Below are positions 4,717-54,098 of a stretch of 64,000 nucleotides of DNA, one piece after another. The stretch covers positions 230 to 64,229 of the forward strand of contig JBHHYU010000008.1 in NCBI GenBank assembly GCA_046757725.1. The letters are read 5' to 3'. The position numbers and the translations under genes were made by a program. Source of the stretch: Candidatus Binatia bacterium. Lineage in GTDB: Bacteria > Desulfobacterota > Binatia > UBA9968. Numbering within the stretch: position 1 is the first letter of the stretch; each line of letters begins with the position of its first letter. Under the pieces are notes generated by a model. The model worked only from the letters and a program-made list of their open reading frames with translations. It made no database searches and was not told where the DNA came from.

Positions 4717-4717
4717 A

Positions 4718-5233: not shown

Positions 5234-5269
5234 CTACATCGTCAAGAACGACGCCAAGGGAAGGCGCTG

Positions 5270-7130: not shown

Positions 7131-7425
7131 CGTACGTGAGTGCCTTAGAGAGCTTCTCCCTCCCGTTGCAAATCGAATAGTCTTTCGCAAATTTGGGAAA
7201 AGAGAGATTTTTAATTCTCAACCTCCGGAAGCATCACCCTAATCATCACCAGTTTATCCCAAGTTTTAACGTTCAGGTCAGTGGTATGTTTCTTGCGAAC
7301 CCCTCTTTCTAACTACCCGAGCAAAGGACCTCGCGGCATGGTGACCGAAACGTGTTTGGCGGCTAAATTGGATCGTACCGACAGGCACCGGTATCAGAGT
7401 GCAAACCAATGGTGGAGGCTTCTTC

Positions 7426-8154
7426 ATGCGAACAGTAAGATGGTTATTTATGCTCCTCTCGCTCTTTTTTTGGGGGTGGACGTTTTTCCCGAGCGCTGAG
7501 GCTATTGCCTTTGAACGGGACTCCCGATGGAACAGCTCTTACTCAAAGGGGCGCTCACTGTATCTTATTCAGTGCGCAGCCTGCCATGGCAAAAACGGTG
7601 AGGGCGGCGTCAGTCTCCCTCTTAACTTGCAAAGCTTTCTTGCCGTAGCCCCTCCGGGCTACATCCGTCGTTCGATTTTCTACGGGCGACTACCGCGGCC
7701 AATGGCCGCCTTCGGGACTATTCTCAAAAAGGAAGAGATCGAGTCCATCGCCGCCTATGTACGTTCCTGGCAGCTCCAGGATTACAAGGGCATTGACATG
7801 AATCGTGTGGCCGGTTCCGTATCCAACGGCAAGTTTCTCTTTGATGGAATCTGTTCCGGGTGTCACGGGAGGGACGGTGTCGGCGGCCCCCAAGTGGGTG
7901 GCGGTCACGTCACCAGCTCCATTGCCGGATATACCGGGCCCTCACTTAATAACCAGGGCTTTCTGAAGTCGGCCACGGACGGATATATCAAAGCGACCCT
8001 GATGTATGGCCGCGTTGGTACCCCCATGGGTTCCTACCTGAAGGGCAAGCAAGGTTTTGTCGAGCTGAGCGAGGAAGAGATCAGCGACATCGTGGCATAC
8101 ATTCGCTCCTGGGAAAAGCGAGACGCCGGGCCACGAGATCCCTGGAGAGAATGA
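7426..8154 (+). CDS. Dihaem class-I c-type cytochrome (periplasmic, Sec signal)
   Basis: Two CxxCH motifs (CAACHG, CSGCHG) and an N-terminal signal peptide (MRTVRWLFMLLSLFFWGWTFFPSAEA). A GGTGGAGG ribosome-binding site precedes the ATG at 7426. Confidence 0.7.
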   Translation: MRTVRWLFMLLSLFFWGWTFFPSAEAIAFERDSRWNSSYSKGRSLYLIQCAACHGKNGEGGVSLPLNLQSFLAVAPPGYIRRSIFYGRLPRPMAAFGTILKKEEIESIAAYVRSWQLQDYKGIDMNRVAGSVSNGKFLFDGICSGCHGRDGVGGPQVGGGHVTSSIAGYTGPSLNNQGFLKSATDGYIKATLMYGRVGTPMGSYLKGKQGFVELSEEEISDIVAYIRSWEKRDAGPRDPWRE

Positions 8155-8176
8155 ACAATCTTGAGGAGGAATAAAA

Positions 8177-10819
8177 ATGCTTAAGATAAATCGGCGCAAT
8201 TTTTTGCAGACATCCGCGGCTGCCCTGGCCACGGGCCTGGCCATGGGAGGCAGGCTTTTCAGAGACAGGGAGTTGTTCCAGTTTGTCGGGGATGCAGAAG
8301 GCGCAGCGACGGACACGCGCAAGCTGGTCCCAACCCAGTGTCCTTACTGCGGCGTGGGTTGCCATACTTACTTCGTTGTCGAAAAGGGAAAGATAGTGGC
8401 CTCGGTCCCTGACAAGGACTCCCCGGTAAACCAGGGCATGCAGTGTATCAAGGGACTGACGGCTGCGGAAGCGCTTTATGTAGACCGGCTGGATCAGGTC
8501 CTCATCCGCAAAGACATGTCAAACCCCCTGACCGGCCATGTCTCCAAAACCAAGGGGCGTTTTGATGACAGTGTATTCCGCGTTGGAACATGGGAGGAGG
8601 GGGCGGAGATCGTCTCCGACATGCTTCTCCGAGTGCTGAAAAAGCACGGGGGTAACGCGCTCGGGGTCTACCAGTCCGGCCAGCTCACGATGGAAGAACA
8701 GTGGCTGGACAATATTTTCTACAAGGGCGTGCTCCAGTCAAACACCATCGAAGCCAACGCACGGATGTGCATGACCTCGGCAGTTACCGGATACATCCAC
8801 AGTCTGGGCAGCGACCATCCTCCCGGCAATTATGCAGACATCGAAGAGGCGGATTTCATAAACCACTGGGGTCATAATTCACGTGGCTCGCACCCTGTCC
8901 TTTTCTGGCGGGTGGCCGCATCGAAAGAAAAACGGAATATTCCCACTATGGTGGTAGACCCACGTTACACCGGGACCATGGATGGCTACGCTCAGGTTAA
9001 TCCTAGTAACAGCCTTTCTGTCACCATCCGTCCGAACGGCGACATTTCGCTCCAGAACGCCATTGCCCATGTCTTAATGAAGGAATTCCCTCAGAGCGTG
9101 GACAGTGCCTTTATCCGCAAGCATACGGAAGGCTTTGACAGTTACCGTGCCGGCATTATGGCGCGTTACAGTCCCGAGCAGGTAGTCGACCGAACGGGCA
9201 TCGCTCCGTCGGTAGTGCGGCGGATCGCCGGGATCTGGGCAGACGCCACTATAAAGGGTCGACAGCGTGGCCGAGGTGGTGTGCTGACCTTCTGGGGAAT
9301 CGGCTACAACCAATCGGTTCACGGGCAGCATCGGACCATCAATCTGATCAACCTACACCTCCTGACCGGCAACATCGGCCGGCCCGGATGCGGGCCGTTT
9401 TCGATGACGGGTCAACCCAATGCCATGAGCGAGCGTCTCATGGGGGGGCTCACCGGCCGCCTCCCTTTCAATGAGGGAATTAAGAACGCCAAACACCGTA
9501 AGCTGATCAACCAGATGTGGGGCCTGCCGCCGGGACGCCTCGACGTCACCGCTGCCGCTCCAAACAAAGGCATGGCCATTGGCATGTTCGAGCGCGCATT
9601 CAAGGGCGAGGTCAAGGTTATACAGTTCGCCTACGCCACACACATCGACCTGCCTGAGGTCAACACCCTCGTCCGCCCGGCTATCACCAAAACGTTTACC
9701 TATATGAATGAGGCCTATCGCCATGCGCCGAACCTGCTTTACGCGGACGTGGTCTTCCCCGCCGCCACGCACGGGGAGAAGTGGGGAGTGTACCAGAACA
9801 GCGAGCGCCGGATGTACGTCACCGACAAGGCCATGGAGCCGCCCCGGAACTGCCGACCTGACCTCGACGTCACCATCGACGAGGGAAAGCATATCGCTGC
9901 CAAGCTGGGGCTCGATCCGGACAGGGTCTTCCCTTACAAAAAAAAGGCAAACGGCCGGTACGATCCCGAGGATGTCTTTCGCCACATCTGTAGGGCGAGC
10001 AAGGGCTCAGACGCAGATCTCACGGGGATCCTCGAAGTGGAAAAACGCGACCGCATCTCTCCCTATGAGCAGATGCGGAAGCTCAAGGGCATCTTCTATC
10101 CGGCACCCAGTTACGAATACGCGAAGAAGGGAGGCATCCCCCGCAAGTACATGGATCAAGAGGTTGGGTGGAGAAATAAGCCCTATGGCGCCTTTCGGCG
10201 TAAGAACGGCAAGGCTAAATTCAAGCTCACAGAACAGAACTATTCGCGCGCTAGGGAGATCATTTCCAAGTTGGACAAGGTCGGCAAAGATCCAAACTTC
10301 TTCGTAACCGACCATTACGATGTGCTTGTGGCAATGCGCGATAATGCACTGACGCCGGAGCTCCCCGACTTTGATTTTTACGGCAAGTCGATCACGGAGA
10401 CCAAAAGGGCTGATAAGTATCCCTACTGGCTCAGCCTTGGTGTAGTCTTTGAGCACTTTCATACGACCAAGACCATCCGCGCGGCCACGACCCGGCGACT
10501 TGTCCCTGAACAGTACGTTGAGATCAACCCCCGGGACGCCCGCCAGCTCGGCGTCGAGGATGGCGAATGGGTCCGCATTGTCACGCCTCGGGCGAGTTAT
10601 GAGGCACGAGTCAGTATCGGCACCAAGAGCAAGGTCAAACCGGCCCGCAACAAGGTCATGCCTGGCCAGCTCTTTAGTCCATGGAACCTTTCCGTCGCGG
10701 ATAGCGCGGACCCCAAGAAAAACCGTTGGTTGGTCAACGCAGTCTCGCATCGCGCCTTTGACCCTGTCTCCGGGCAGGCGGATTTCAAACACCTGAGAGC
10801 GCGGATCGAAAAGATCTAG
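8177..10819 (+). CDS. Tat-exported molybdopterin oxidoreductase, NapA-like periplasmic nitrate reductase catalytic subunit candidate (880 aa)
   Basis: Twin-arginine motif (RRNFLQTSAAA). The N-terminal 4Fe-4S motif C-x2-C-x3-C-x27-C is followed by ...PVNQGMQCIKGL, which resembles NapA/Nas (DAPVNRGLNCIKGY). A strong GAGGAGGA ribosome-binding site lies upstream and NapG/NapH-like genes lie downstream. Confidence 0.55.
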   Translation: MLKINRRNFLQTSAAALATGLAMGGRLFRDRELFQFVGDAEGAATDTRKLVPTQCPYCGVGCHTYFVVEKGKIVASVPDKDSPVNQGMQCIKGLTAAEALYVDRLDQVLIRKDMSNPLTGHVSKTKGRFDDSVFRVGTWEEGAEIVSDMLLRVLKKHGGNALGVYQSGQLTMEEQWLDNIFYKGVLQSNTIEANARMCMTSAVTGYIHSLGSDHPPGNYADIEEADFINHWGHNSRGSHPVLFWRVAASKEKRNIPTMVVDPRYTGTMDGYAQVNPSNSLSVTIRPNGDISLQNAIAHVLMKEFPQSVDSAFIRKHTEGFDSYRAGIMARYSPEQVVDRTGIAPSVVRRIAGIWADATIKGRQRGRGGVLTFWGIGYNQSVHGQHRTINLINLHLLTGNIGRPGCGPFSMTGQPNAMSERLMGGLTGRLPFNEGIKNAKHRKLINQMWGLPPGRLDVTAAAPNKGMAIGMFERAFKGEVKVIQFAYATHIDLPEVNTLVRPAITKTFTYMNEAYRHAPNLLYADVVFPAATHGEKWGVYQNSERRMYVTDKAMEPPRNCRPDLDVTIDEGKHIAAKLGLDPDRVFPYKKKANGRYDPEDVFRHICRASKGSDADLTGILEVEKRDRISPYEQMRKLKGIFYPAPSYEYAKKGGIPRKYMDQEVGWRNKPYGAFRRKNGKAKFKLTEQNYSRAREIISKLDKVGKDPNFFVTDHYDVLVAMRDNALTPELPDFDFYGKSITETKRADKYPYWLSLGVVFEHFHTTKTIRAATTRRLVPEQYVEINPRDARQLGVEDGEWVRIVTPRASYEARVSIGTKSKVKPARNKVMPGQLFSPWNLSVADSADPKKNRWLVNAVSHRAFDPVSGQADFKHLRARIEKI

Positions 10820-10840
10820 AGAGCGAGCTGGAGGATAGCT

Positions 10841-11437
10841 GTGAGATTGAAATGGAACCGGCGGCGTTTCCTGCGAGCTGCCGGAGGCGCACTGGGAACG
10901 GCAATACTCTGGGTTCTAGCGGGTGCGCGGGTATCCGCGCGGAGTGGGTCGAACTTCGCCAACCTGCTACGTCCTCCGGGGGCGTTGCCCGAACCTGAGT
11001 TTCTCCAGCGCTGCATCCGCTGCACCCGGTGCGCGGGCGTGTGTCCGAACACCGCCATTCGGATGGCCGGTTTCAGCTCTGGGCTCCACAATCTCAATAC
11101 CCCTTACATCATGCCCCGGGTGCAGGCCTGTATGCTCTGCATGAAATGCACCGAAGTCTGCCCGACGGGCGCGCTGCATCAAATCCCGGCGGATAACAAA
11201 CAGATCACTACCCGTGTCAAGATGGGGCGCGCCTATGTGGATAAGTCCATGTGTTATTCCTATCAAAAACGCACCTGCGGGGTCTGTATTCGCGCCTGTC
11301 CGTTCCCCGGTCTCGCCATGAAGACGGGGCTATACGAGCAGCCCATCGTGACCGACTCCTGTGTCGGATGCGGCCTGTGCGAGCGTGCCTGCATCCACAT
11401 TCCGCAGGCGATTCGAATCGTTCGGGAGGAGGCCTGA
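10841..11437 (+). CDS. NapG-like periplasmic ferredoxin (4x 4Fe-4S, Tat signal)
   Basis: GTG start with a GGAGGA ribosome-binding site. The RRRFLRAAGGALG motif is a Tat signal. Four CxxCxxCxxxCP-type cluster motifs are present. Confidence 0.65.
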   Translation: MRLKWNRRRFLRAAGGALGTAILWVLAGARVSARSGSNFANLLRPPGALPEPEFLQRCIRCTRCAGVCPNTAIRMAGFSSGLHNLNTPYIMPRVQACMLCMKCTEVCPTGALHQIPADNKQITTRVKMGRAYVDKSMCYSYQKRTCGVCIRACPFPGLAMKTGLYEQPIVTDSCVGCGLCERACIHIPQAIRIVREEA

Positions 11438-11441
11438 AGTC

Positions 11442-12968
11442 ATGACTCGATGGCCCCGCCGCATGGTGCAAATCTCGGCACTCGCCTTCCTTATCGCGGT
11501 GCCTGCGCTGAACTACGGCGGTGTCCTCTACCAACAGTACGGAAAAAACGGTTACCACAAGATTGCCCTCATGGGGACACTTTTCGAACGCGGGTTATAC
11601 AATCTCTTCTCAGCGATGGCGCGGGTGCTACCCAATCCGGCGGGAAACTCAACGAGTCTTGTGGGGGGATACGGCTCTTTTTCGATATTCGGTATCTCTT
11701 TCCTCGATCCTGTGATTGCCCTCGAGACGGTGCTTCGCGTGCAGGCAGTCTGGACCGCTATCCTCGTAGGGGCTGCGCTGCCACTGCTGCTGGCCGTGCT
11801 GTTGGGGCGGATCTTCTGCGGATGGCTTTGTCCCGTGAACACGGTGCTCGAAGGTTTCGACCTGCTTCGAAAGCGCGCCCTGCCGCGCATTGGCTTCCGG
11901 CCGCTGGACGTGGCAGTGCCGCGCTGGTTGAAGTGGGTTCTCTTGTTCGCCGGTGTGACCGTAGCCGTCCTGGCGGATCTCACCATCTGGACGCACTTAC
12001 TCCCCCATGTCCAGATCGGCCGGGACGTTTTTTCTCTTATCGTGTTCGGTACGACCACGGTGGGCGCTCCTCTCCTCCTAGGAATCATCCTGGCAGAGAT
12101 TCTCTTTTCCCGCAGGGTATGGTGCCGGTCGCTTTGCCCCACCGGGGCGCTACTCGGCCTGGCGGCCCTGGTAGCTCCACTACGAGTGCGTCGGGCGAAG
12201 GAACCGTGCCTTAAAGGCTGTGCGGCCTGTGCCCAGGCCTGCCCCATGGCACTGAATCCCGCAAAGCCGTTCCCGGTAGCTGAATGCTACAACTGCGGGC
12301 TCTGTGTCGCCACTTGCCCGGCTCAGTTGCTCACTCTCGGCTTCCCGCGGCCGCGCTGGGTCGTTGTTCAAGAGATATTTCCCATGTTTAAGCGCATGAC
12401 GCTTTTTGTCCTCACTGCTACCCTGCTTCTCTCCTCACCGGCGGCGGCCCACCACATGCGCGGCCAGCCACACTACGGGTATGCCGAGAACTATCCACAG
12501 GTCCCTACGAAGGAAACCCGCGCGCACATCGGCAACTTTGATATCACGATCGTCAGTTATTTCTTCGAAGGCCTGCGGCGTGACCTCTCGGACACCCCAC
12601 ACGACGTCCAGTTCTATGTAGGTCTTAGTGACAGCCGGACCCATCAGAGCTACATGGGCCCGCTTTCCATTGAGTTGTGGCGTGGGGGGCAGCGCATCGC
12701 CACCTTCAACCACACGCACCCCTTCGAAGAAGCAGTCTATCGCATTCGTCAGGCAGTTCCCGGACCGGGGACATATGAGATTCGCCTCGCAGGGGGTGGG
12801 ATCAGCGGAGTCGTCACCGTGGATGTGGAGGGAGAATCAGCTCAGTTGACGCCTTTCATCCTGACGGGGGCTGCCGCCCTGCTCGGCCTTCTTATTTTCT
12901 TAAACCGCCGACGGAGGCAGAGAAGGAGAGTCTATGTGGCATCTAATGCGCAAAACCATGTCCAATAG
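11442..12968 (+). CDS. NapH/MauN/CcoG-like polytopic membrane ferredoxin with an in-frame ~200-aa C-terminal extension (His-rich periplasmic domain plus terminal TM anchor)
   Basis: TM helices, a GWLCP motif and two C-terminal 4Fe-4S motifs (CLKGCAACAQACP, CYNCGLCVATCP). The frame then continues without a stop through a hydrophobic segment (MFKRMTLFVLTATLLLSSPAAAHHMRGQPHYGY...), a ~150-aa soluble domain and a final TM helix followed by an RRRRQRRR stretch. The ATG at 11442 has a GGGAGGAGG ribosome-binding site. Confidence 0.55.
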   Translation: MTRWPRRMVQISALAFLIAVPALNYGGVLYQQYGKNGYHKIALMGTLFERGLYNLFSAMARVLPNPAGNSTSLVGGYGSFSIFGISFLDPVIALETVLRVQAVWTAILVGAALPLLLAVLLGRIFCGWLCPVNTVLEGFDLLRKRALPRIGFRPLDVAVPRWLKWVLLFAGVTVAVLADLTIWTHLLPHVQIGRDVFSLIVFGTTTVGAPLLLGIILAEILFSRRVWCRSLCPTGALLGLAALVAPLRVRRAKEPCLKGCAACAQACPMALNPAKPFPVAECYNCGLCVATCPAQLLTLGFPRPRWVVVQEIFPMFKRMTLFVLTATLLLSSPAAAHHMRGQPHYGYAENYPQVPTKETRAHIGNFDITIVSYFFEGLRRDLSDTPHDVQFYVGLSDSRTHQSYMGPLSIELWRGGQRIATFNHTHPFEEAVYRIRQAVPGPGTYEIRLAGGGISGVVTVDVEGESAQLTPFILTGAAALLGLLIFLNRRRRQRRRVYVASNAQNHVQ

Positions 12969-13018
12969 GGTCCGGCGCGTCGTCTTCTCTGATAGGGAAT
13001 CGTCACGGGGGTGAATAG

Positions 13019-13615
13019 ATGACCGAGAAGCCTATCGACCGTAAGACCTTTCTACGTAAGGCCCCGTTGGCAATCGCGCGTGCCTTTGCCCAGGCCGTGC
13101 GCGAGGCGCATCCAACCATCCCAAAATCTTCTCTGCCTCTCCTTCGGCCGCCCGGGGGGGCCGCCAAAGAGACTTTCCTCGACTTGTGCTGCGGGACCGG
13201 TGCGTGCGCAGATGTCTGCCCGGCCAAAGCCATCCAGCTCCGCCCGCGTGAGGATACACCTTCGCTTCGCGCCCCGGTTATCATCCCCAACGAGGCTGCC
13301 TGCGTTGTCTGCGACGAACTCGCTTGCATGTCCGCTTGCCCCAGCGGCGCACTTGTGCCGGTCCCCCGAGAGAAGATCCGCATCGGCTTTGCCCGTGTCA
13401 ACACCGAGACATGCGTGGCATGGACGGGGACGGACCCGGGGTGCAACTATTGCGTTGCCCGTTGTCCACTCGGAACACCGGCCATCTCGATAGATAAGAA
13501 AGCAGACGGAAAAGGGCCGGTCGTTAAGGACGCCTGCATCGGCTGCGGTGTGTGCGAATACTACTGCCCGACCCAACCGCCCGCAATCCGCGTGCTTGCG
13601 AGGGAGCAGGGTTGA
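13019..13615 (+). CDS. Second NapG/NapF-like poly-ferredoxin (4x 4Fe-4S)
   Basis: Four Cys-cluster motifs. The N-terminus (DRKTFLRKAPLAIARAFAQAV) resembles a Tat signal but carries RK instead of RR. A ribosome-binding site lies upstream. Confidence 0.55.
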   Translation: MTEKPIDRKTFLRKAPLAIARAFAQAVREAHPTIPKSSLPLLRPPGGAAKETFLDLCCGTGACADVCPAKAIQLRPREDTPSLRAPVIIPNEAACVVCDELACMSACPSGALVPVPREKIRIGFARVNTETCVAWTGTDPGCNYCVARCPLGTPAISIDKKADGKGPVVKDACIGCGVCEYYCPTQPPAIRVLAREQG

Positions 13616-13755: not shown

Positions 13756-14229
13756 ATGAGTGAAATGAAGTTAGGGCGGGAAAGTTCATACGGAATCGAA
13801 GGCCTGTTGACTCTGGCTGCAAGGCCGCGGGGCACTGCGATGCTCTTAAGCGACATTGCCGCCGATAGAGGGATCCCCCAGAGTTTTCTCGCTAAAATCT
13901 TTCAGAAACTCACCAGATACGGAATCGTCCATTCTTTCCGTGGGGTCGTCCGCGGTTACGCCCTCGCTCGGCACCCAAAAGAGATCAAGGTTAAAGAGAT
14001 CCTATTGGCGATCGAAGGGCCTGATCTTTTCGAGCGTTGTATCTTCTGGAGCGATCGCTGTGCCGATCGCAACCCCTGTCCTCTGCATGACCAGTGGAAG
14101 CAATTAAAACATCAGTTCATCGGAGGATTGATGGAACGGACAACCCTGGCCGACCTGATAAAAAAAAGACCAGCCAGGCCTACGACGGCCAAGCGTCACT
14201 TTGTTCAGGACGCAAGGCGGGGAAGTTAA
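13756..14229 (+). CDS. Rrf2-family transcriptional regulator (NsrR/IscR-like, putative Fe-S cluster ligands)
   Basis: The N-terminal wHTH is typical of Rrf2. The motif CIFWSDRCADRNPCP gives C-x6-C-x5-C spacing as in NsrR/IscR. The gene sits between the Nap-like and NXR-like modules. Confidence 0.7.
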   Translation: MSEMKLGRESSYGIEGLLTLAARPRGTAMLLSDIAADRGIPQSFLAKIFQKLTRYGIVHSFRGVVRGYALARHPKEIKVKEILLAIEGPDLFERCIFWSDRCADRNPCPLHDQWKQLKHQFIGGLMERTTLADLIKKRPARPTTAKRHFVQDARRGS

Positions 14230-14395: not shown

Positions 14396-15976
14396 ATGAG
14401 ACGGTGTTTTTTGTTGATTGCCGGTGTGTTCCTCCTGTTACGTGCAGCAGGAGTCGGGACCTCCGCCGAATTAAAATCTCCTCCCCCTTCACCTAAACTC
14501 CTTGCCCTCGGAAAGCAGACTTACAACAAACATTGTGTCGCGTGCCATGGAGTGAATGGACGAGGAAATGGAGAAGCGGCCTACCTTCTCTATCCCAAAC
14601 CCCGTAATTTTGTGGCCGCAAGGTACCGCCTAGTGTCGACCTGGGAACGCATCCCGACCGACCAGGATCTCTTCAACACGATTTCGCGCGGCATGCCGGG
14701 ATCAGCCATGCCCTCGTGGGGGCATCTCTCGTCAAAGCAGCGCTGGGGGCTTGTTCATTACGTAAAGTCATTTGCTGAAAGGCCACTAACCACCAAGCCT
14801 CAGAGGAGACCAGGGGCTGATGGCAGCGATGGTCAAGGGGTCATCTATGTTGGGCCGGAGCCCTCTTACGATGCCACTGCCAAGGCGCGTGCTAAAGAGC
14901 TTTTCCGAGAGGCGTGTGCCTCCTGTCACGGTGCAACGGCAAAAGGGGATGGCGTGAAAAAGCAGTGGGACGTGGAAGGCTTTCCCACGCGCCCACGTGA
15001 TCTCACAGCCGGCGTTTTCAAGGGAAGTCCGGACCCCTTGCAACTGTACCGCCGCATCATCGCAGGCATTCCGGGTAGCCCCATGCCGATGAACAGCTGG
15101 GCTTATGGTAATGACGCCTGGCACCTCGTTCACTTTATCCGCTCCCTCTCAAGTGATGAGCAACGAGAGCGCGTGGAGATGAAAAAATTTCAGATCGTGG
15201 CCACGCGCGTAAAGAAGGTACCGGACAATCCCGACTCCGGCACTTGGCGTCTCGCCCAACCGGTAAACCTTCATCTGATGCCGCTCTGGTGGCGCTCCCA
15301 GCGGCCGGAAGAATTGACCGTGCGGGCACTCTACGACAGGAAGGAATTGGCTTTACTTTTAGTCTGGGCCGATCAGACGCATGACCATACAGCGATCCGG
15401 CCACAGGATTTCCGGGATGCTGCAGCGGTAGAGTTCTCGCTTACCAGGGATCCTCCTTTTTTCGCCATGGGCGAGAAGGGGAAATCCGTCAATATCTGGA
15501 TGTGGAAATCGGAGCGGCAGGCAGACCTTGAACCTGCCTTTCAGGACCTTGACAAGATCTACCCTAACCTCGGCATCGACTCTTACCCTAATCTATTACG
15601 CTCGCCGGTGGAACAGCCTTCGCGTAACGCGCTCACGCTCAAGTCAGACAAGACCTTCGTGACCGGATGGGGGGCGGGGAATATTGTTTCTGACCCCCAG
15701 CGCAAGAGCCCAGCCGAGGATCTCACGGCGCAGGGATTCGGCACGCTGCGAGCACGACCGCGGATCGACCAGAAGGTCAATGCGAAGGGCATTTATGGTG
15801 TCGGTGCCTACCGGGTCATCTTCCGGCGGGCGTTAAAGCCCAGCGGTAAGCACGCGCCGAAGTTTCAACCCGGCACGGCTGTGCCGGTGGCCTTTGCGGT
15901 CTGGAACGGCAGCGCCGGAGACCGTGACGGAAAAAAATCTGTGACCATCTGGCAGGAGCTGAAGATCGCAAAATGA
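14396..15976 (+). CDS. NxrC-like gamma subunit: Sec-signal, N-terminal dihaem cytochrome c fused to a C-terminal EB_dh-like (type-II DMSO-reductase haem-b subunit) domain
   Basis: Strong GGGAGGAGG ribosome-binding site and a signal peptide. Two cbb3/c552-type haem motifs (CVACHG, CASCHG) are followed by ...WNHLVHFIRSL. The C-terminal ~260 aa ends in VAFAVWNGSAGDRDGKKSVTIWQEL, which recalls from memory the gamma subunits of EbdC/SerC/NxrC enzymes. The gene lies immediately upstream of the alpha subunit. Confidence 0.55.
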   Translation: MRRCFLLIAGVFLLLRAAGVGTSAELKSPPPSPKLLALGKQTYNKHCVACHGVNGRGNGEAAYLLYPKPRNFVAARYRLVSTWERIPTDQDLFNTISRGMPGSAMPSWGHLSSKQRWGLVHYVKSFAERPLTTKPQRRPGADGSDGQGVIYVGPEPSYDATAKARAKELFREACASCHGATAKGDGVKKQWDVEGFPTRPRDLTAGVFKGSPDPLQLYRRIIAGIPGSPMPMNSWAYGNDAWHLVHFIRSLSSDEQRERVEMKKFQIVATRVKKVPDNPDSGTWRLAQPVNLHLMPLWWRSQRPEELTVRALYDRKELALLLVWADQTHDHTAIRPQDFRDAAAVEFSLTRDPPFFAMGEKGKSVNIWMWKSERQADLEPAFQDLDKIYPNLGIDSYPNLLRSPVEQPSRNALTLKSDKTFVTGWGAGNIVSDPQRKSPAEDLTAQGFGTLRARPRIDQKVNAKGIYGVGAYRVIFRRALKPSGKHAPKFQPGTAVPVAFAVWNGSAGDRDGKKSVTIWQELKIAK

Positions 15977-16058: not shown

Positions 16059-19000
16059 ATGACCATGAACGATGAAAAACTACAAGATCGGAATCGCTTG
16101 ACGCGCCGGGATTTCCTGCGCTGGATGGGTATCGGGAGCGGCACAGCAGTACTCAGCACAGGGTTGCCGTTGAGGCTTCTGGCTGCTGCGCGCCCCGGCG
16201 AGAATCCCCTCGCTGGTTCGGTGGACCGTAACTGGGAAAAAATATATCGCAATCAGTACAAGTATGATCGTGTTTTCGACTGGGTCTGCTCCCCCAATGA
16301 CACTCATGCCTGTCGAGTACGGGCCTATGTCCGAAATGAGATCGTGACGAGACTCGGATCAACCTACGACTACCAGACTTACGCCGACCTTTACGGTAAC
16401 AAAGCCACCCCGAACTGGAACCCACGGCAGTGCGCCAAGGGCTATACTTTCCATCGGGTGATCTACGGACCCTACCGGCTCAGGCATCCCATCGTCCGCA
16501 AAGGCTGGAAGGCCTGGGCCGACGCCGGCTTCCCTGAGCTGAGACCGGAAAACAAAGCGAAGTACATGTTCGACAACCGCGGCCAGGACGAGTTTGTTCA
16601 GATCTCCTGGGAGGATGCGCTTCAAAGCATCGCCAAGGCCATCGTCGCCATTTCGACACGTTACAGCGGTGAGGGGGGAAAGAGGCGGTTGCTGGCCCAG
16701 GGCTACCAGCCGGAAATGGTTGAGGCTGCCGCGGGTGCCGGCACTCGTTGCGTCAAGATGCGTGGAGGCATGGGCCTTCTAGGGGTCATCGGCAAATACG
16801 GGTTGTACCGGCTCAACAATTCGCTTGCGCTCCTCGATGCGAAGATTCGAGGGGTAGGTCCAGAAAAAGCACTAGCTGGCCGCAACTGGTCTAATTATAC
16901 CTGGCACGGAGATCAGGCGCCCGGCCACCCATGGGTGCACGGACTGCAAACATCGGACTGCGATTTCAACGACTTGCGCTTCACCAAGCTCATTATCTTG
17001 GACGGAAAGAATCTCGTAGAAAATAAGCTACCCGATGCCCACTGGTTCATCGAGTGCATGGAGCGTGGGGGAAAAATTGTCGTTATCGCCCCGGAATACG
17101 GACCTCCTGCAACCAAGGCTGATTACTGGATTCCCATTAGGCCCGAGACCGACACGGCACTCTGGCTTGGTGTTACTAAACTGATTTTCGAAAACAAGTG
17201 GTACGATGAGACATTCGTCAAACGCCATACCGATTTCCCCCTCCTCGTCCGTACCGATACGTTGAGGCGTCTGCGGGCACATGAGATCTTCCCGAACTAT
17301 TCCTCCAACCTCTCCCCTGATGGGCCTTCGATGAAGATCCAAGGTCTTACACGGGAGCAACACTCCAAACTCGGTGATTTTGTAATCTGGGACCAGAAAA
17401 ACAATGGCCCAGCCGCGCTCACGCGAGATGATGTGGGAGAGACGATGGCTAAAAAGAGGCTGGACCCAACCCTGGAAGGAACGTTCAAGGTCAAGCTTGT
17501 CGACGGTAAAGAGGTGGAGGTCGCCACGCTTTGGACGCTCTATCGGACCCATCTTCGGGACTATGACCTTGACACGGTATCAGAGATCACGCATGCACCC
17601 AAGAACCTGATCGAACAGCTTGCCAAGGACATCGGAGCGATAAAACCAGTTGCGATCCACCAGGGCGAGGGGATCAATCACTGGTTCCACGGTACCGAGA
17701 TGAACCGTGCAGCCTACCTGCCACTGATGCTAACCGGCAACATTGGCAGGCCGGGAGCCGGGGGCCATACATGGGCAGGAAATTACAAAGCAGGTCTTTT
17801 TCAGGGTTCCCCATGGACCGGGCCGGGCTTTAAGGGGTGGGTAGCCGAGGACCCATTCCACCCGAATTTGGACCCCAAGGCCCATGGAAAAAACGTAAAG
17901 ATCCATGGCTACACTAAGGGCGAGGAGCCAGCCTACTGGAACCATGGGGACCGGGCATTGATTCTCAACACACCGAAGTTCGGCCGTAAGAATTTTACCG
18001 GCGAGACCCACATGCCAACACCGACCAAAGCCATTATCTTTAACAACGTTAACCTGATCAATAATGCCAAGTGGGCCTACGGGATGATTAAGAACGTCAA
18101 CCCCAACATCGAGATGATCGTCTCGCTGGATATTCAGATGACTGCCTCTATTGAGTATGCAGACATTGCGCTGCCAGCGAATAGCTGGATGGAGTTTGAA
18201 GGGTTGGAGATGACGGCGAGCTGCTCAAATCCCTTCTTGCAGATCTGGAAGGGAGGTATTTCACCGGTGTTTGATAGCAGGGATGACCTGACGATTCTGG
18301 CTGGCATCGCCGGCGAGCTTGCCGAGATTACGGGAGAGAGCCGCTTTCGGGATCATTTTAAGTTCGCTGCGCCCGAACAGCGCGGGATCTATATCCAGCG
18401 CCTGCTCGACACCTGCACGACCACGGCAGGGTATAAACTCAAGGACATTATGGCCGGCAAGTATGGACCCCCGGGGGGCAGCCTGTTGAACTTCCGCACC
18501 TACCCTCGCATCCCCTTCTATGAGCAGATCCATGATTCAGAGCCGTTCCACACGGACACGGGGAGACTCCACGCCTATGCTGATATCCCTGAGGCAATCG
18601 AGTACGGGGAAAACTTCATCGTGCATCGGGAGGGACCAGAGGCTACGCCCTACTTGCCCAACGTCATTGTCAGTTCAAACCCTCACATTCGCCCGGAGGA
18701 TTACGGGATCCCTCTAACCGCGGAACACTGGGATGAACGCACCGTCCGCAACGTCAAGCTTCCATGGAGCAGAGTCAAAGAGACGAAAAATTTCCTGTGG
18801 GAGAAAGGCTTCCATTTCTACTGCCTCACTCCGAAGACACGCCACCGGGTCCACAGTGGTTGGTCAAACGTCGATTGGCACATGCTCTATGACTCAAACT
18901 TCGGCGACCCTTACCGTCTTGATAAGCGTGCGCCAACGGTGGGAGAGCACCAGCTCCATATCAATCCTCAGGCAGCACGGAAATTAGGGATCAACGATGG

Positions 19001-19538
19001 CGATTACGTTTACGTGGATGCCAACCCGGCCGACCGCCCCTACCTCGGCGCAACGCCCAGCGATCCTTTCTACAAGGTATCGCGCTGCATGCTGCGAGTG
19101 AAATACAACCATGCTTATCCCTATAACATCGTCATGATGAAGCACGCCCCGTTCATCGCCACAGAAAAGAGCGTCAAGGCACACGAAACACGCCCCGACG
19201 GCCGCGCCCTATCGGAAAATACCGGCTACCAGGCCAATCTCCGCTACGGCTCCCAGCAATCCGTCACCCGTAATTGGCACATGCCAATGCACCAAACGGA
19301 CAACCTTTTTCACAAGTCAAAGGTCTTTATGGGGTTTATCTTTGGCGGTGAAGCCGACAACCACGCGATCAACACCGTACCGAAGGAAACCCTGGTGCGC
19401 GTCACGAAGGCTGAGGACGGAGGCCTTGGCGCCAAAGGCATCTGGAAACCGGCCACCACCGGCTACACGCCGGACAACGAGAACGACTTCATGAAACGAT
19501 ATCTGGCAGGGGAGCTGGTCAAGGTGCCGGGCAAATAG
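16059..19538 (+). CDS. nxrA: Tat-exported NarG-type molybdopterin oxidoreductase alpha subunit, periplasmic NXR/NarG-like (NxrA candidate, ~1160 aa)
   Basis: Twin-arginine motif TRRDFLRWMGIGSG. The N-terminal Cys/His FS0-type motif is VCSPNDTHACRV. The size matches periplasmic NxrA (~1150 aa) rather than type-II enzymes (~920-980 aa) or cytoplasmic NarG (~1250 aa). A gamma-like subunit lies upstream and a beta subunit downstream. The alternative ATG at 16065 has better ribosome-binding-site spacing. Confidence 0.7.
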   Translation: MTMNDEKLQDRNRLTRRDFLRWMGIGSGTAVLSTGLPLRLLAAARPGENPLAGSVDRNWEKIYRNQYKYDRVFDWVCSPNDTHACRVRAYVRNEIVTRLGSTYDYQTYADLYGNKATPNWNPRQCAKGYTFHRVIYGPYRLRHPIVRKGWKAWADAGFPELRPENKAKYMFDNRGQDEFVQISWEDALQSIAKAIVAISTRYSGEGGKRRLLAQGYQPEMVEAAAGAGTRCVKMRGGMGLLGVIGKYGLYRLNNSLALLDAKIRGVGPEKALAGRNWSNYTWHGDQAPGHPWVHGLQTSDCDFNDLRFTKLIILDGKNLVENKLPDAHWFIECMERGGKIVVIAPEYGPPATKADYWIPIRPETDTALWLGVTKLIFENKWYDETFVKRHTDFPLLVRTDTLRRLRAHEIFPNYSSNLSPDGPSMKIQGLTREQHSKLGDFVIWDQKNNGPAALTRDDVGETMAKKRLDPTLEGTFKVKLVDGKEVEVATLWTLYRTHLRDYDLDTVSEITHAPKNLIEQLAKDIGAIKPVAIHQGEGINHWFHGTEMNRAAYLPLMLTGNIGRPGAGGHTWAGNYKAGLFQGSPWTGPGFKGWVAEDPFHPNLDPKAHGKNVKIHGYTKGEEPAYWNHGDRALILNTPKFGRKNFTGETHMPTPTKAIIFNNVNLINNAKWAYGMIKNVNPNIEMIVSLDIQMTASIEYADIALPANSWMEFEGLEMTASCSNPFLQIWKGGISPVFDSRDDLTILAGIAGELAEITGESRFRDHFKFAAPEQRGIYIQRLLDTCTTTAGYKLKDIMAGKYGPPGGSLLNFRTYPRIPFYEQIHDSEPFHTDTGRLHAYADIPEAIEYGENFIVHREGPEATPYLPNVIVSSNPHIRPEDYGIPLTAEHWDERTVRNVKLPWSRVKETKNFLWEKGFHFYCLTPKTRHRVHSGWSNVDWHMLYDSNFGDPYRLDKRAPTVGEHQLHINPQAARKLGINDGDYVYVDANPADRPYLGATPSDPFYKVSRCMLRVKYNHAYPYNIVMMKHAPFIATEKSVKAHETRPDGRALSENTGYQANLRYGSQQSVTRNWHMPMHQTDNLFHKSKVFMGFIFGGEADNHAINTVPKETLVRVTKAEDGGLGAKGIWKPATTGYTPDNENDFMKRYLAGELVKVPGK

Positions 19539-19572
19539 AGGGAGCTTGCAAGATAGACCGAGGAGAACTCAG

Positions 19573-19869
19573 ATGCCTTATGACGATCCTGATCCCACGG
19601 ATCCCAATATCTTGGTGGGGGTAGCCCTGCCGGCCGATGCGGAAGTAATATGCGAGATGGCCTACGTCTTTGCCGAAGAATTTATCCGAATGGGGTACGA
19701 TCGAGAGCGAGTGCTGCAGGTTTTCAAGAACCCGTTTTACACCGGTCCGCACAATGCTTACCGGGACCTGGGCGAAGAGAAAGTCCAGTCCATTATCGAG
19801 GAGTGTATCCACGCATGGGGCGGTGTCTGTTTTGTTGATTGCGACGACGGAAAGGAGACAGAACCATGA
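19573..19869 (+). CDS. Small acidic Cys-containing protein of unknown function, translationally coupled to nxrB
   Basis: 98 aa with a GAGGAG ribosome-binding site upstream. Its stop overlaps the nxrB start (ATGA). Cys residues include a C-terminal CFVDCDD. It occupies the entire nxrA-nxrB intergenic space. Confidence 0.5.
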   Translation: MPYDDPDPTDPNILVGVALPADAEVICEMAYVFAEEFIRMGYDRERVLQVFKNPFYTGPHNAYRDLGEEKVQSIIEECIHAWGGVCFVDCDDGKETEP

Positions 19870-21131
19870 GTCAGGTTTACAACTGGCAACTCGGCCGCAA
19901 GATGGATTATCCCTTTCCGGCCGCATATCCGAAGCGGCAGTTCGCCTTTGTCTTTAATATCAACCGCTGCATCGCCTGCCAGACCTGTACCATGGCCTGC
20001 AAATCAACCTGGACCTTCAGCAAGGGCCAGGAACATATGTGGTGGGCCAACGTCGAGACCAAACCTTATGGTGGTTATCCCCAGTTTTGGGACATGAAGA
20101 TCCTGCGGCTTCTCGAGGAAGCCAACCCCGGAGGGCAGCAATGGTCGGGAACCCCTTCCGGGAACTCCAAAAACCCCTACGGTCGTTTTGACGGACAAAC
20201 TATTTTTGAGGCTAAGAAAGCGCTTCAGCCCGGGAGCTCACGGGTCCTAGGTTACCTTCCCACCGACGAGGAGTGGAACTTTCCCAACATCTATGAGGAC
20301 AATCCGCTCGGCAAGAAAGGGGTGCCCAACCAATTCGACACAACCGGAGTGGAGCTGCCCGTACACAAGACCTGGTTCTTTTATCTGGCGCGTATTTGCA
20401 ACCACTGTACCTACCCCGGGTGTCTGGCAGCCTGCCCGCGCAAGGCCATTTACAAACGCCCTGAGGACGGCATCGTCCTCATCGACCAGAAGGAGTGCCG
20501 TGGCTACCGTAAGTGCGTGGAGGCCTGCCCTTACAAAAAGGCAATGTATCGGGGCAATACCCGAGTGACCGAGAAATGCATTGCCTGCTACCCACGAGTC
20601 GAGGGTAAAGACCCCGAGAGTGGTGGCCAGCCTATGGAAACGCGTTGCATGGCGGCGTGCGTGGGCCAGATGCGCATGCAGGGCCTAGTCAAAATGAACC
20701 GGGACGGCACCTGGACCGAAGACCGACACAATCCGATCTACTACCTCGTGCATGTGGCCAAAGTAGCCCTACCGCTTTATCCCGAACTCGGCACTTTACC
20801 CAATGGTTACTATATTCCTCCCCGCTGGGTACCGCGACCTTATCTTCGGCAGATGTTCGGTCCAGGCGTTGACAACGCGATCGAGCGTTATATTAACCCG
20901 GACCGAGAACTCCTTGCGGTCCTGCAGCTTTACCGGCGCTCCAACCGAATCATCTTCCGCTATGAAATTAAGAAGGGGCCAAAGATCTATGAGGCCACGC
21001 ACCGCGGCCGGAAAGTGACGCTGTACAACGACACCATTATCGCTTATGGCCGAAACAACAAGGAGATCTTCCGAACCACTGTTGAGGAGCCGGTTTATGT
21101 ACGGTCGAAAAAACATGCCAACTCGATATGA
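19866..21131 (+). CDS. nxrB: NarH/NxrB-type Fe-S beta subunit (4 clusters, NxrB-like insertion), 421 aa
   Basis: The N-terminus MSQVYNWQLGRKMDYPF...FAFVFNINRCIACQTCTMACKSTW resembles periplasmic NxrB. Four Cys clusters are present, including the inserted CIACYPRVEGKDPESGGQPMETRCMAAC. A GGAAAGGAGA ribosome-binding site lies upstream. Confidence 0.75.
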   Translation: MSQVYNWQLGRKMDYPFPAAYPKRQFAFVFNINRCIACQTCTMACKSTWTFSKGQEHMWWANVETKPYGGYPQFWDMKILRLLEEANPGGQQWSGTPSGNSKNPYGRFDGQTIFEAKKALQPGSSRVLGYLPTDEEWNFPNIYEDNPLGKKGVPNQFDTTGVELPVHKTWFFYLARICNHCTYPGCLAACPRKAIYKRPEDGIVLIDQKECRGYRKCVEACPYKKAMYRGNTRVTEKCIACYPRVEGKDPESGGQPMETRCMAACVGQMRMQGLVKMNRDGTWTEDRHNPIYYLVHVAKVALPLYPELGTLPNGYYIPPRWVPRPYLRQMFGPGVDNAIERYINPDRELLAVLQLYRRSNRIIFRYEIKKGPKIYEATHRGRKVTLYNDTIIAYGRNNKEIFRTTVEEPVYVRSKKHANSI

Positions 21132-21217
21132 AGAGATAAAGAGCCCGTATTCCGTTCGTTTTCATTTCCTCCTGCGCAACGTCCGGCGCCTTCAGGTCAC
21201 CCACAGTTCAGGAGATC

Positions 21218-22024
21218 GTGATGAAACCTGAAAATCTGAGAAAAGAACAAGAGGTCAGGGAGGGCGATCTAGCCCTCTGCCGAGCCACTCTGTATAGCGC
21301 GCTGGCGCTCGGCTTCCGACCGCCCACAGAGGAAACATTAACTCGCCTCGCCTCTACGGAGGGTGCAACGGTTTTGGCCGGCGCAGCGGCGCTGCTGGAC
21401 GGACAGCACCAGGTAACCCTCACCTCCGCCGCAGAGGATCTCAGCAAAATAAAAAAAACCTCCGTATCAGAGCTCGAAGTCTCATTCTGGCGCCTATTCG
21501 GCCATACCGTACGCGGCCAGGTACCCCTATATGAAACCGAGTACGGTGTTGATTCTCTTTTCCAGCAACCGCAGGAATTGGCAGACCTATTAGGTTTTTA
21601 CCACGCATTCGGTCTCGCCTTAGACCCGAAAGAACACGAACGGGCAGATCATGTTAGTTGCGAACTCGAGTTTCTCTCCTTTCTTGCCCTCAAAGAGGTC
21701 TACGGCTTGGAGCAACGGGACGACCCTATGCTGGAAGAGACACGTAAGGCCGCGCGCACCTTCTTACGGGATCATCTCGGTCGGTTCGCGCCTGCCTTCA
21801 CCAGGAAGCTTTCTCGTGAAGACCGGGAGGGCTTTTACGGGGCTCTAGGTGAGCTCTGCGCGAGGTTTGTGATCGAAGATTGTACCCGACTCAGCGTGTC
21901 GGTCGGCCCAGAGAGTTTAGGCTTGCGTCCAGCTGCTGAAGATCAAGTGCCGATGGCATGTGACAATGGAGCGGAGTGCACTGAGTTGTCCGGCGCTTGC
22001 GAACAGGAAATAATGGAAAAATGA
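21218..22024 (+). CDS. TorD/NarJ/DmsD-family redox enzyme maturation chaperone (delta subunit)
   Basis: Contains the family motif E-H-E-R-A-D-H-V-S-C-E-L-E-F-L-S-F-L (DHxxxELEFLxxL), typical of TorD/NarJ. The gene lies downstream of the beta subunit. Confidence 0.7.
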   Translation: MMKPENLRKEQEVREGDLALCRATLYSALALGFRPPTEETLTRLASTEGATVLAGAAALLDGQHQVTLTSAAEDLSKIKKTSVSELEVSFWRLFGHTVRGQVPLYETEYGVDSLFQQPQELADLLGFYHAFGLALDPKEHERADHVSCELEFLSFLALKEVYGLEQRDDPMLEETRKAARTFLRDHLGRFAPAFTRKLSREDREGFYGALGELCARFVIEDCTRLSVSVGPESLGLRPAAEDQVPMACDNGAECTELSGACEQEIMEK

Positions 22025-22977
22025 GCCCTGGGGTTCTTCTCAGTTACGACTCCAGTTTAATGGAAGAGGCTGTCTTCCTCGCTTTGCAGGGACATCCGGC
22101 CGCCGTGGAATTTTTCGGTGAGCGCAACAAACTCTACGAAATCAGTGATTCGGAGGAACAAGAGCGTGCCTTTCGGGATTTCCATTGCGCCTGGTTTACC
22201 CGTTTAGAATTCGCCGACCAGATCGAAAAGGCAGTCAACGAACACCCTTTTCTTACTTCCAGTGTCAGGCGCTGTGTCGTAGCTTGCGTCTCAAGAAAGC
22301 AAGATGAAGGAGCTGAACTCTTTGTCGGTTCCCAAGCAGAAAACAGCGAAAAAGAGCGTCGTACGGTGCGAATCCTATTGAGACCTGAATCATTTCTTGA
22401 CTCCCTTACTCTACTAAGACTGCTTCGCCATGAACTTTTGCACATCACGGACATGCTCAGCACTAGCTTCGGCTATGACCCGATCCTACCGAAGGCACCA
22501 GGCGGGCCCGCCTATGACCAATTACTACAAGACCGCTACCGTGTCCTGTGGGATGCAACGATAGATGGTCGAATGGTGCGGCGCGGCTGGGCGCCCGATT
22601 CGATCCGTGTAGAGCGCCTTTGTGAATTCCGCCATGCCTTTCCCATGTTCAGGGAAGCGGCCTCTCAGCTGTTTGATCGCTTTTTCGACCAAGAGCCACA
22701 TACGCATGGCGAATTGGTTACATTCGCCTGCAACCCCATGGCCGCCGTAGATGACTCACCAATGACGCGCAGCCCCGGAAGCCGGTGCCCTCTTTGCGGT
22801 TTTCCAACGTATGCGTTCGAGCCGGCGCCTGAGCACCTGCCTCTAGAGGTCCTCTCTCAGATCACTCAAGACTTTCCGCGGTGGCGCCCAACTCAGGGTC
22901 TTTGCACCCAGTGTGCGGATCTTTACCGGGCACGTTGGGCCTCGTCTCGTGCAGAGAGTCCTTTTCCGGGAACATAG
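22021..22977 (+). CDS. Hypothetical protein with HExxH motif and C-terminal CxxC...CxxC zinc-ribbon, translationally coupled to the chaperone gene
   Basis: The ATGA overlap with the chaperone gene's stop indicates translational coupling. The motif LLRHELLHITD carries HExxH. The C-terminus holds CPLCGFPTYAF...CTQCADLY. I recognise no known family. Confidence 0.45.
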   Translation: MSPGVLLSYDSSLMEEAVFLALQGHPAAVEFFGERNKLYEISDSEEQERAFRDFHCAWFTRLEFADQIEKAVNEHPFLTSSVRRCVVACVSRKQDEGAELFVGSQAENSEKERRTVRILLRPESFLDSLTLLRLLRHELLHITDMLSTSFGYDPILPKAPGGPAYDQLLQDRYRVLWDATIDGRMVRRGWAPDSIRVERLCEFRHAFPMFREAASQLFDRFFDQEPHTHGELVTFACNPMAAVDDSPMTRSPGSRCPLCGFPTYAFEPAPEHLPLEVLSQITQDFPRWRPTQGLCTQCADLYRARWASSRAESPFPGT

Positions 22978-54028: not shown

Positions 54029-54098
54029 GGGACCGCGCTAATGATAGCACGCAGACGAACTGCAAGAAAGGCTTTTCGCTTACAGCCTGCCTAGAATG

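Follow-up and report, generated by a model that had tools for sequence, protein, structure and literature searches.

A dihaem cytochrome c fused to a haem-b domain is the probable gamma subunit of a widespread nitrite:nitrate oxidoreductase-type cassette

Introduction

How electrons enter or leave the periplasmic nitrite:nitrate oxidoreductase (NXR) of Nitrospira, Nitrospina and anammox bacteria is unsettled; several gamma-subunit and alternative NxrC (alt_NxrC) candidates have been described, and their roles are unresolved (PMC3578206, PMC6606698). The same question is raised by a 64,000-nucleotide stretch of DNA from a Candidatus Binatia bacterium (contig JBHHYU010000008.1 of assembly GCA_046757725.1, positions 230 to 64,229, forward strand), referred to here as the window and numbered from its first letter. 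Directly upstream of a gene for an NxrA-type molybdenum enzyme, the window carries a gene whose product joins a dihaem cytochrome c (c2) to a haem-b domain of the EB_dh type (b). Is this c2-b protein the gamma subunit of the adjacent enzyme, a freely diffusing cytochrome, or the product of an assembly error? An initial annotation, made from the letters alone, had read it as an NxrC-like gamma subunit fused to an N-terminal dihaem cytochrome c. On the basis of sequence comparison and structure prediction, we consider the c2-b protein likely to be the electron-transfer (gamma) subunit of an NXR-type enzyme that is soluble and periplasmic.

Results

Architecture of the fused protein

The gene and its predicted elements are as follows.

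14396..15976, + strand: whole c2-b gamma gene, consisting of Sec signal, dihaem cytochrome c and EB_dh haem-b domain; 526 aa
14396..14467, + strand: Sec-type signal peptide, aa 1-24, MRRCFLLIAGVFLLLRAAGVGTSA, with a ...TA|E cleavage context kept in homologues
14483..14785, + strand: cytochrome c domain 1, aa ~30-130, with CVACH at 14534-14548 (aa 47-51)
14708-14710, + strand: candidate distal ligand M105 of domain 1, conserved in 100% of 102 cluster representatives
14858..15163, + strand: cytochrome c domain 2, aa ~155-256, with CASCH at 14915-14929 (aa 174-178)
15083-15085, + strand: candidate distal ligand M230 of domain 2, conserved in 100% of 102 cluster representatives
15179..15973, + strand: EB_dh / NxrC-type haem-b domain, aa 262-526
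15467-15469, + strand: M358, candidate haem-b ligand, aligned with EbdC Met108 in HMMER alignments
15935-15937, + strand: K514, candidate haem-b ligand, aligned with EbdC Lys201 in HMMER alignments

The open reading frame (ORF) lies exactly where the initial annotation had placed it, on the + strand. It starts with ATG, preceded at a distance of 6 nt by the Shine-Dalgarno sequence GGGAGGAGG, and runs uninterrupted for 526 codons. Scans for promoters and terminators returned nothing exceeding shuffle expectation. The mature protein would comprise ~502 aa, with a mass of 56 kDa without haems. Its sole hydrophobic segment is aa 2-24, and no transmembrane segment was found outside the signal, the highest Kyte-Doolittle value of any 19-residue window after aa 25 being 0.73. 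Four of its cysteines belong to the CxxCH motifs, and the only other one, Cys4, lies in the signal peptide. The N-terminal 'MRRCFLL' hints at export by the twin-arginine (Tat) pathway. This route was ruled out, as the RR pair occurs in just 4 of 112 close homologues. Since homologues retain the ...TA|E context rather than these two arginines, we assign the signal to the Sec type, in line with the Sec signal that had been annotated ahead of the cytochrome c domains. Maturation of c-type cytochromes requires Sec-type export.

The N-terminal half was recognised by Pfam as two Cytochrom_C domains (PF00034, E 5.6e-21), with Cytochrome_CBB3 also matched. Its initial description as two class-I cytochrome c domains is borne out by these two Pfam domains, the CVACH and CASCH motifs, and a conserved distal Met for each. 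A single-sequence PDB search pairs aa 37-256 with chain 6h5l_B (Kustc0457) over all of its 226 aa (E 2.8e-37), and a profile search using 87 family members gave E 5.8e-64 for the same pairing. Foldseek labels 6H5L as the 'Kustc0457/Kustc0458' complex.

The C-terminal half contains the Pfam EB_dh domain (PF09459) at aa 305-515, with E 9.4e-22 and 78.6 bits against a cut-off of 33.3. Searches with PF09459 and with cytochrome-c profile models had been suggested in the initial annotation, and they detected the EB_dh domain as well as the two Cytochrom_C domains. In the single-sequence PDB search, aa 308-523 match Kuenenia stuttgartiensis NxrC (7b04_C, E 1e-23) and EbdC (2ivf_C, E 2e-12); the profile search gave E 1.9e-52 and 4.4e-24, respectively. 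M358 and K514 align with Met108 and Lys201 of EbdC, which we take to be the axial ligands of haem b in the 2IVF structure, and the HMMER alignments place an equivalent Met and Lys in Kuenenia NxrC. K514 belongs to the C-terminal motif VAFAVWNGSAGDRDGKKSV, which had been pointed out before and is indeed present. The earlier reading of this half as an NxrC/EbdC-type haem-b gamma subunit is therefore upheld by a PF09459 score above cut-off and by matching fold and Met/Lys ligands.

To gauge ligand conservation we used an alignment of 102 representatives of 50%-identity clusters with the same architecture, in which the presence of both CxxCH motifs (100%) was a selection criterion. M358 is kept in 99 and K514 in 101 of these 102 sequences, and both are invariant in two other homologue alignments (A1 and A3). 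Because the candidate ligands are conserved, the protein is predicted to hold two His/Met c-haems and one Met/Lys b-haem, sites that we infer to be occupied.

The AlphaFold2 (AF2) model, calculated from 87 sequences, shows one compact two-module protein with a high-confidence linker (pLDDT 90.2, pTM 0.87); an alignment of 24 close homologues gave a pLDDT of 53.7. The top three chains in a Foldseek search against the PDB were NxrC, Kustc0457 and EbdC, with target-normalised TM-scores of 0.78, 0.82 and 0.83, and this search returned no solved PDB chain holding both modules.

Conservation of the fusion in independent assemblies

The c2-b gamma has an identical counterpart in NCBI, which stems from a 'Candidatus Binatia bacterium' metagenome-assembled genome (MAG). 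The next 119 homologues, drawn from more than 100 independent NCBI, JGI, ENA and Logan assemblies, are 70-83% identical to it and nearly all 523-531 aa long. Both CxxCH motifs are present in 119 of the 120 listed best homologues, the identical entry included. A HMMER scan covering 1.84 billion cluster representatives returned 683 representatives of 50%-identity clusters at E ≤ 1e-30 and 4138 at E ≤ 1e-10. The best 150 representatives are mostly end-to-end matches of 480-620 aa with two CxxCH motifs and an N-terminal signal, and without a C-terminal transmembrane helix. With a profile search, more than 5000 90%-identity clusters were recovered at E ≤ 1e-20.

The initial annotation had proposed a survey of homologue architectures and had expected the fusion to be unusual. 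The survey found the same fusion in the 683 representatives at E ≤ 1e-30, and the expectation proves overstated: alt_NxrC proteins combining haem c and haem b were published between 2010 and 2019 (PMC3578206, PMC6606698), and the architecture is very common in metagenomes. The fusion is thus conserved and widespread in uncultured bacteria, and is a variant of a known subunit type (NxrC / alt_NxrC).

Rarer architectures also occur in the c2-EB_dh family (P0216, P0226, P0230 and P0290). One member of 962 aa has ~11 predicted transmembrane helices ahead of the dihaem-EB_dh core, and two members carry seven CxxCH motifs. In one 648-aa entry an Rrf2 domain is fused ahead of the core, perhaps because two genes were merged in gene calling.

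The six-gene cassette

The fused gene is the first of six genes on the + strand. The other five are listed below.

16059..19538, + strand: NxrA-type catalytic subunit with a molybdenum-bis(pyranopterin guanine dinucleotide) cofactor (Mo-bisPGD); Tat motif TRRDFLR
19573..19869, + strand: small ORF between nxrA and nxrB; 98 aa, its stop overlapping the nxrB ATG (ATGA)
19866..21131, + strand: NxrB-type iron-sulphur (Fe-S) subunit with four clusters; full-length match to Kuenenia NxrB (7b04_A) with 589 bits
21218..22024, + strand: NarJ/TorD-like chaperone of type II dimethyl sulfoxide (DMSO) reductases
21997..22977, + strand: 326-aa protein closing the cassette; its C-terminus has a zinc-finger-like motif, CPLCG...CTQC

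NxrA aligns with Kuenenia NxrA (7b04_B) at 1831 bits and 64% identity over 898 aligned residues. The FS0 motif CSPNDTHAC and the motif YTWHGDQAPGHP in the Mo-ligand region are the same in both proteins. Perchlorate reductase and EbdA, which come next among the structures, have tenfold lower scores, and every NCBIfam match of NxrA lies under its cut-off. The mechanically called starts of nxrA (16038, GTG) and nxrB (19839, TTG) are probably too early. We prefer the ATG codons at 16059, which is preceded by an AGGAGA Shine-Dalgarno sequence, and at 19866, because both have a good Shine-Dalgarno sequence and homology to the Kuenenia proteins begins there.

Two cassette genes are without a recognised family. 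The 98-aa ORF has its own Shine-Dalgarno sequence and counterparts of 28-51% identity at the same place in five distant cassettes; it gave no Pfam or PDB match and no signal peptide, and it may encode an uncharacterised assembly factor or subunit. The 326-aa protein, for which no Pfam, NCBIfam or PDB match was found, is always the last gene of the cassette, with 27-58% identity across loci. It was considered as a second NxrC and rejected, since it is not EB_dh-like and has a zinc-finger-like C-terminus. It probably corresponds to the 'putative zinc finger' in the NXR gene set of Kuenenia, Nitrospira and Nitrospina (PMC3578206).

Synteny and the sole gamma-subunit candidate

Across a scan that took one genome per GTDB species, 162 genomes contained a relative of the c2-b gamma, and the best 80 loci were compared. 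In these the relatives are 64-82% identical to the window protein, and they come from at least 10 phyla. The carriers include Binatia, Methylomirabilota/Rokubacteria, Acidobacteriota (Vicinamibacteria, Polarisedimenticolia), Latescibacterota and Planctomycetota, together with Gemmatimonas, Verrucomicrobiia, Hydrogenedentota, KSB1, Krumholzibacteriia and others. The order fused gamma, NxrA, NxrB, chaperone, zinc-finger protein is kept in all of the best 80 loci with enough downstream DNA. The same cassette, small ORF included, was found in five distant relatives from Omnitrophota and metagenome contigs, whose gamma proteins are 38-42% identical to that of the window.

No other EB_dh ORF is present in the 64-kb window, so a second canonical NxrC nearby was rejected. 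A small canonical NxrC was found inside the cassette in none of the 85 loci, and a second EB_dh ORF occurs in just three of them, each time outside the cassette. Because no cassette encodes another EB_dh protein, the fused protein is the only gamma-subunit candidate of this operon type. Its synteny with NxrAB in 85 related loci agrees with the initial proposal that it is the gamma candidate of the adjacent molybdenum enzyme.

Proposed mechanism and direction of the reaction

In the mechanism that we propose, the c2-b gamma would be exported unfolded via Sec. Two covalent His/Met c-haems would be loaded into its N-terminal Kustc0457-like module and one Met/Lys-ligated b-haem into its C-terminal EB_dh domain. 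The loaded subunit would then presumably assemble with Tat-exported NxrAB. Electrons could pass from Mo-bisPGD to FS0, through the four NxrB Fe-S clusters to haem b, and on to the first and second haem c. The path would end at an external high-potential partner, which might be a cytochrome c, alternative complex III (ACIII) or a bc complex, or a terminal oxidase. In this way the enzyme would come with its own cytochrome c partner, whereas canonical NXR, Ebd, Ser and Clr recruit theirs as a separate protein.

We lean towards a reversible enzyme. Nitrate reduction, with electrons from the cytochrome c pool or ACIII, is evenly balanced in our estimate. In its favour, the carriers of the cassette are non-nitrifier lineages, several of them apparently anaerobic, and redox-stress and Fnr-type regulators lie nearby. 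By analogy with the bc1-cytochrome c4 route to selenate reductase, the ACIII encoded in the window could feed in electrons via cytochrome c. Nitrite oxidation, with electrons passed to cytochrome c oxidase, is about as likely, if slightly less so. The closest characterised enzyme, Kuenenia NXR, oxidises nitrite, and high-potential cytochromes typically show the His/Met ligation that is conserved for the c-haems here; both points favour nitrite oxidation. The Nap-like cluster upstream of the cassette decides the direction neither way.

Weighing the alternatives

Several observations weigh against the c2-b protein being an NXR gamma subunit. TIGR03477, the NCBIfam model of type II gamma subunits, matches with E 1.1e-35, but its 122.9 bits are below the cut-off of 169.85; judged by sequence, the EB_dh domain is a divergent relative of this curated subfamily. 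Identity to Kuenenia NxrC in the shared domain is ~27-35%. Between cassettes, gamma is far more divergent (38-42% identity) than alpha and beta (57-73%), and Kuenenia NxrA, at 64%, falls within the latter range. The contextual clues on direction conflict as well, with the Nap-like cluster and ACIII of this locus and the anaerobic genes of its relatives set against a closest enzyme that oxidises nitrite. In addition, soluble NxrC-like proteins with haem c and haem b have been weighed as free shuttles rather than fixed subunits (PMC3578206). Along these lines, the c2-b protein might move freely in the periplasm as a soluble shuttle, or it might be an adaptor through which NxrAB makes transient contact with a membrane complex (ACIII, bc, or a module such as alt_NxrC with a bd-like oxidase), with NxrAB being heterodimeric or having another partner. 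Its own Sec signal and the absence of a membrane anchor would suit such a role, as would two Methylomirabilota loci in which a membrane-anchored alt_NxrC-like protein and a bd-like oxidase adjoin the cassette. We nevertheless consider it unlikely: the c2-b gene is first in the operon in 85 of 85 loci, no cassette offers another EB_dh gamma, and the protein retains the fold and ligands of NxrC and EbdC, whose EB_dh domain is a stably bound gamma subunit in the solved structures.

Two further explanations concern the gene model and the substrate. An assembly, frameshift or gene-calling artefact might have joined a cytochrome c gene to nxrC, and one MAG contig alone would be insufficient to exclude such a merger. 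A frameshift merging two genes had also been raised in the initial annotation; the architecture instead recurs in independent assemblies. Both CxxCH motifs are found in 119 of the 120 best homologues, which stem from independent assemblies and mostly measure 523-531 aa; we therefore treat the artefact as excluded, with a residual probability that is negligible. The uninterrupted ORF, the 102 distinct 50%-identity cluster representatives that have the architecture in common, and the compact AF2 model with its confident linker all argue in the same direction. As to the substrate, type II enzymes with an EB_dh gamma are very diverse (Ebd, Ser, Clr, Ddh) and the alpha subunit reaches no NCBIfam cut-off, so that the cassette might act on chlorate, selenate or an organic compound, with the c2-b subunit serving that chemistry. 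This seems very unlikely, however, given the degree of identity of alpha to Kuenenia NxrA and the shared FS0 and Mo-ligand-region motifs, the tenfold lower scores of perchlorate reductase and EbdA, and the full-length match of beta to NxrB. An operon-encoded gamma subunit of an NXR-type enzyme is the reading that we retain.

Neighbouring genes

Upstream of the fused gene, the window contains a respiratory complex, a second molybdenum enzyme and a regulator.

466-8154, + strand: ACIII-like operon with fused ActB (973 aa), ActC, ActD, an ActF-like protein and a monohaem cytochrome c
7399-8154, + strand: dihaem cytochrome c of 251 aa within the ACIII-like operon, whose ActB/C/D/F and cytochrome c genes lie at 466-7130
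8177-13615, + strand: Nap-like cluster, a second periplasmic Mo enzyme, with a Tat-signal NapA-like protein, two NapG-like ferredoxins and a 535-aa NapH-like membrane Fe-S protein
13756..14229, + strand: Rrf2-family Fe-S regulator with the cluster-ligand pattern Cx6Cx5Cx2H, immediately preceding the fused gene

The gene for ActA would be expected before the window start or spanning it. In none of the best 80 loci was an ACIII subunit detected within 10 kb of the fused gene, and a conserved ACIII linkage was therefore rejected. The initial annotation had suggested that the fusion wires the enzyme into the periplasmic cytochrome c pool or the adjacent ACIII. The first part is a reasonable inference; the second fails as a general link, since it is local to this genome. 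The Nap-like cluster is placed between the ACIII genes and the NXR cassette, and its NapA-like subunit scores 323 bits, far under the cut-off of 904.

The Rrf2 regulator is found upstream on the same strand in ~20 of the 80 related loci, and its scores for the NCBIfam subfamilies IscR, NsrR and RirA are all under their cut-offs. Genes found near the cassette in other loci encode hemerythrin/ScdA-like proteins, a Crp/Fnr regulator, TatA/TatC, anaerobic ribonucleotide reductase and BcrAD/HGD-D-type proteins, and in one case a Rieske/cytochrome b with NapA. A radical-SAM (SPASM-like) protein is encoded upstream on the opposite strand in ~14 of the 80 loci (for example L003, 8274-9557, - strand), and radical-SAM genes are also found near the distant cassettes L082, L084 and L085. 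Elsewhere in the window, and unrelated to the finding, positions 51133-56465 on the - strand encode the large subunit of a molybdenum hydroxylase of the CoxL/xanthine-dehydrogenase family (788 aa), beside two XdhC-type chaperones, one of which has a YHS domain.

Discussion

Implications of a c2-b gamma subunit

A single gamma subunit with haem b and two c-haems would provide a simple model of the exit wire, running from Fe-S clusters to haem b, two c-haems and the cytochrome c pool, and it makes the c2-b protein amenable to expression and structural study. Its chief worth is as a clue, supplied by the fusion, to how periplasmic NXR is connected with the respiratory chain. In metagenomes from soil, sediment and groundwater the cassette occurs in abundance. 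Metagenome papers score the adjacent gene as nxrA or narG, and nxrA hits are routinely equated with 'nitrite oxidation' or 'nitrate reduction' although neither is backed by evidence; which of the two the carriers carry out would be easier to decide from the subunit composition and the redox partner.

The fusion might also be read as a 'Rosetta stone' that marks Kustc0457-like dihaem cytochromes c as the direct partner of NxrC haem b in all periplasmic NXRs. We regard this generalisation as rather doubtful. If true, it would cover the separate dihaem cytochromes of the Nitrospira, Nitrospina and anammox nxr gene sets, and the six-gene cassette would amount to a nitrite:cytochrome c oxidoreductase that is complete in itself and mobile by horizontal transfer. 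It would further imply cryptic cytochrome-c-coupled nitrite oxidation, beyond nitrate reduction, in many non-nitrifier phyla, such as Binatia, Methylomirabilota/Rokubacteria, Acidobacteriota, Omnitrophota, Planctomycetota and others.

Comparison with known systems

The window enzyme resembles the periplasmic NXR holoenzyme in its Tat-motif NxrA, with conserved FS0 and Mo-ligand region, and in its NxrB-type beta subunit. The c2-b gamma shares with canonical NxrC (7B04 C) and EbdC (2IVF C) the EB_dh fold, the Met/Lys haem-b ligands, solubility and Sec export, and in each case the gene stands together with those for the alpha subunit, beta subunit and chaperone of a type II DMSO-reductase-family enzyme. 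Type II gamma subunits are as a rule single-domain, monohaem proteins of ~200-320 aa; NxrC (322 aa) and EbdC (214 aa) contain haem b alone, whereas the 526-aa window protein has two extra CxxCH domains, which form a 230-aa dihaem module in front. Gene order also differs, being gamma-alpha-beta in the window and nxrABC in Nitrospina, while nxrC is unlinked in Nitrospira (PMC3578206, PMC6606698).

The dihaem module itself has its closest parallel in an enzyme of another kind. Kustc0457 is a dihaem cytochrome c on a Kuenenia octahaem nitrite reductase resembling hydroxylamine oxidoreductase (HAO), where it adds two six-coordinate haems to the haem circuit (PMC8042395). It shares full-length homology with the cytochrome c half, two CxxCH motifs and conserved sixth ligands. 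Kustc0457 is free-standing and docks non-covalently on octahaem HAO, whereas the window module is covalently fused to the haem-b domain and would serve a molybdoenzyme; no HAO-like gene is present in the window. A similar logic, in which a soluble periplasmic Mo enzyme works with c-cytochromes and a quinol:cytochrome c oxidoreductase, is seen in SerABC with cytochrome c4 and in chlorate and perchlorate reductases (cited in PMC3578206). In the Ser- and chlorate-type systems, however, the c-type cytochrome is separate, while the window protein has b and c haems in one chain. In the case of PcrC, a c-type cytochrome replaces the EB_dh subunit.

The nearest published relatives in architecture are the alt_NxrC proteins. 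Nitrospina gracilis has four 'alternative NxrC' with one to three CxxCH sites, three of them with a DMSO-reductase-like haem-b domain (Lücker et al. 2013, PMC3578206). For two of the four, solubility is predicted and a role as electron shuttle was put forward as a possibility (PMC3578206). An alternative NxrC is also part of a gene set common to Kuenenia, Nitrospira and Nitrospina, along with mono- and dihaem cytochrome c, a TorD-like chaperone, a zinc-finger protein and a bd-like oxidase (PMC3578206). In Nitrospira moscoviensis, alt_nxrC_2 encodes a 66.8-kDa protein with a signal peptide, one transmembrane helix and a dihaem cytochrome c (Mundinger et al. 2019, PMC6606698). It is highly expressed, lies away from nxrAB beside a bd-like oxidase, and was judged to be no core subunit (PMC6606698).

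The alt_NxrC proteins of N. gracilis, N. moscoviensis (NITMOv2_3640) and anammox bacteria resemble the window protein in having c-haem motifs and a haem-b domain in one chain behind a Sec signal, and both kinds are tied to periplasmic NXR of the Nitrospira/Nitrospina/anammox type (PMC3578206, PMC6606698). They differ in three respects. The published proteins mostly have a transmembrane helix, whereas the window protein is without a membrane anchor; they are encoded away from nxrAB, clustered with a bd-like oxidase and c-cytochromes, whereas the window gene is directly upstream of nxrA; and they coexist with a canonical soluble NxrC and are not regarded as core subunits, whereas the window protein is accompanied by no canonical NxrC. 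The window contains no bd-like oxidase. In the literature on PF09459 or NxrC fusions we found no publication describing an operon-encoded soluble form, and the c2-b protein does not seem to have been described before as the gamma subunit belonging to an NXR-type cassette that is widespread and distributed horizontally.

Both forms can be seen side by side in two Methylomirabilota/Rokubacteria loci, L034 and L054, where an alt_NxrC-like module (at 3519-8920, + strand, in L034 and at 18017-21288, - strand, in L054) adjoins the cassette. The module comprises a Cyt_bd_oxida_I-like protein, a dihaem cytochrome c and an alt_NxrC-like protein of ~745 aa. The latter has N-terminal transmembrane segments, three CxxCH motifs, EB_dh and a C-terminal transmembrane helix, which is the published alt_NxrC architecture. 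In L054, by eye, an Arg apparently occupies the position of the haem-b Lys ligand. A homologue search from the L034 protein returned only NC10, Rokubacteria and Tectomicrobia names, and this protein is collinear with aa 39-374 of the window protein at 33% identity. By sequence, the window protein is a member of the same dihaem-c + EB_dh superfamily as the alt_NxrC type and a distinct paralogue within it, a comparison that for the nitrifier alt_NxrC is by description only. Set against the L034/L054 type, it is soluble, without the third haem domain and without both anchors, and its gene is the first of the nxr operon.

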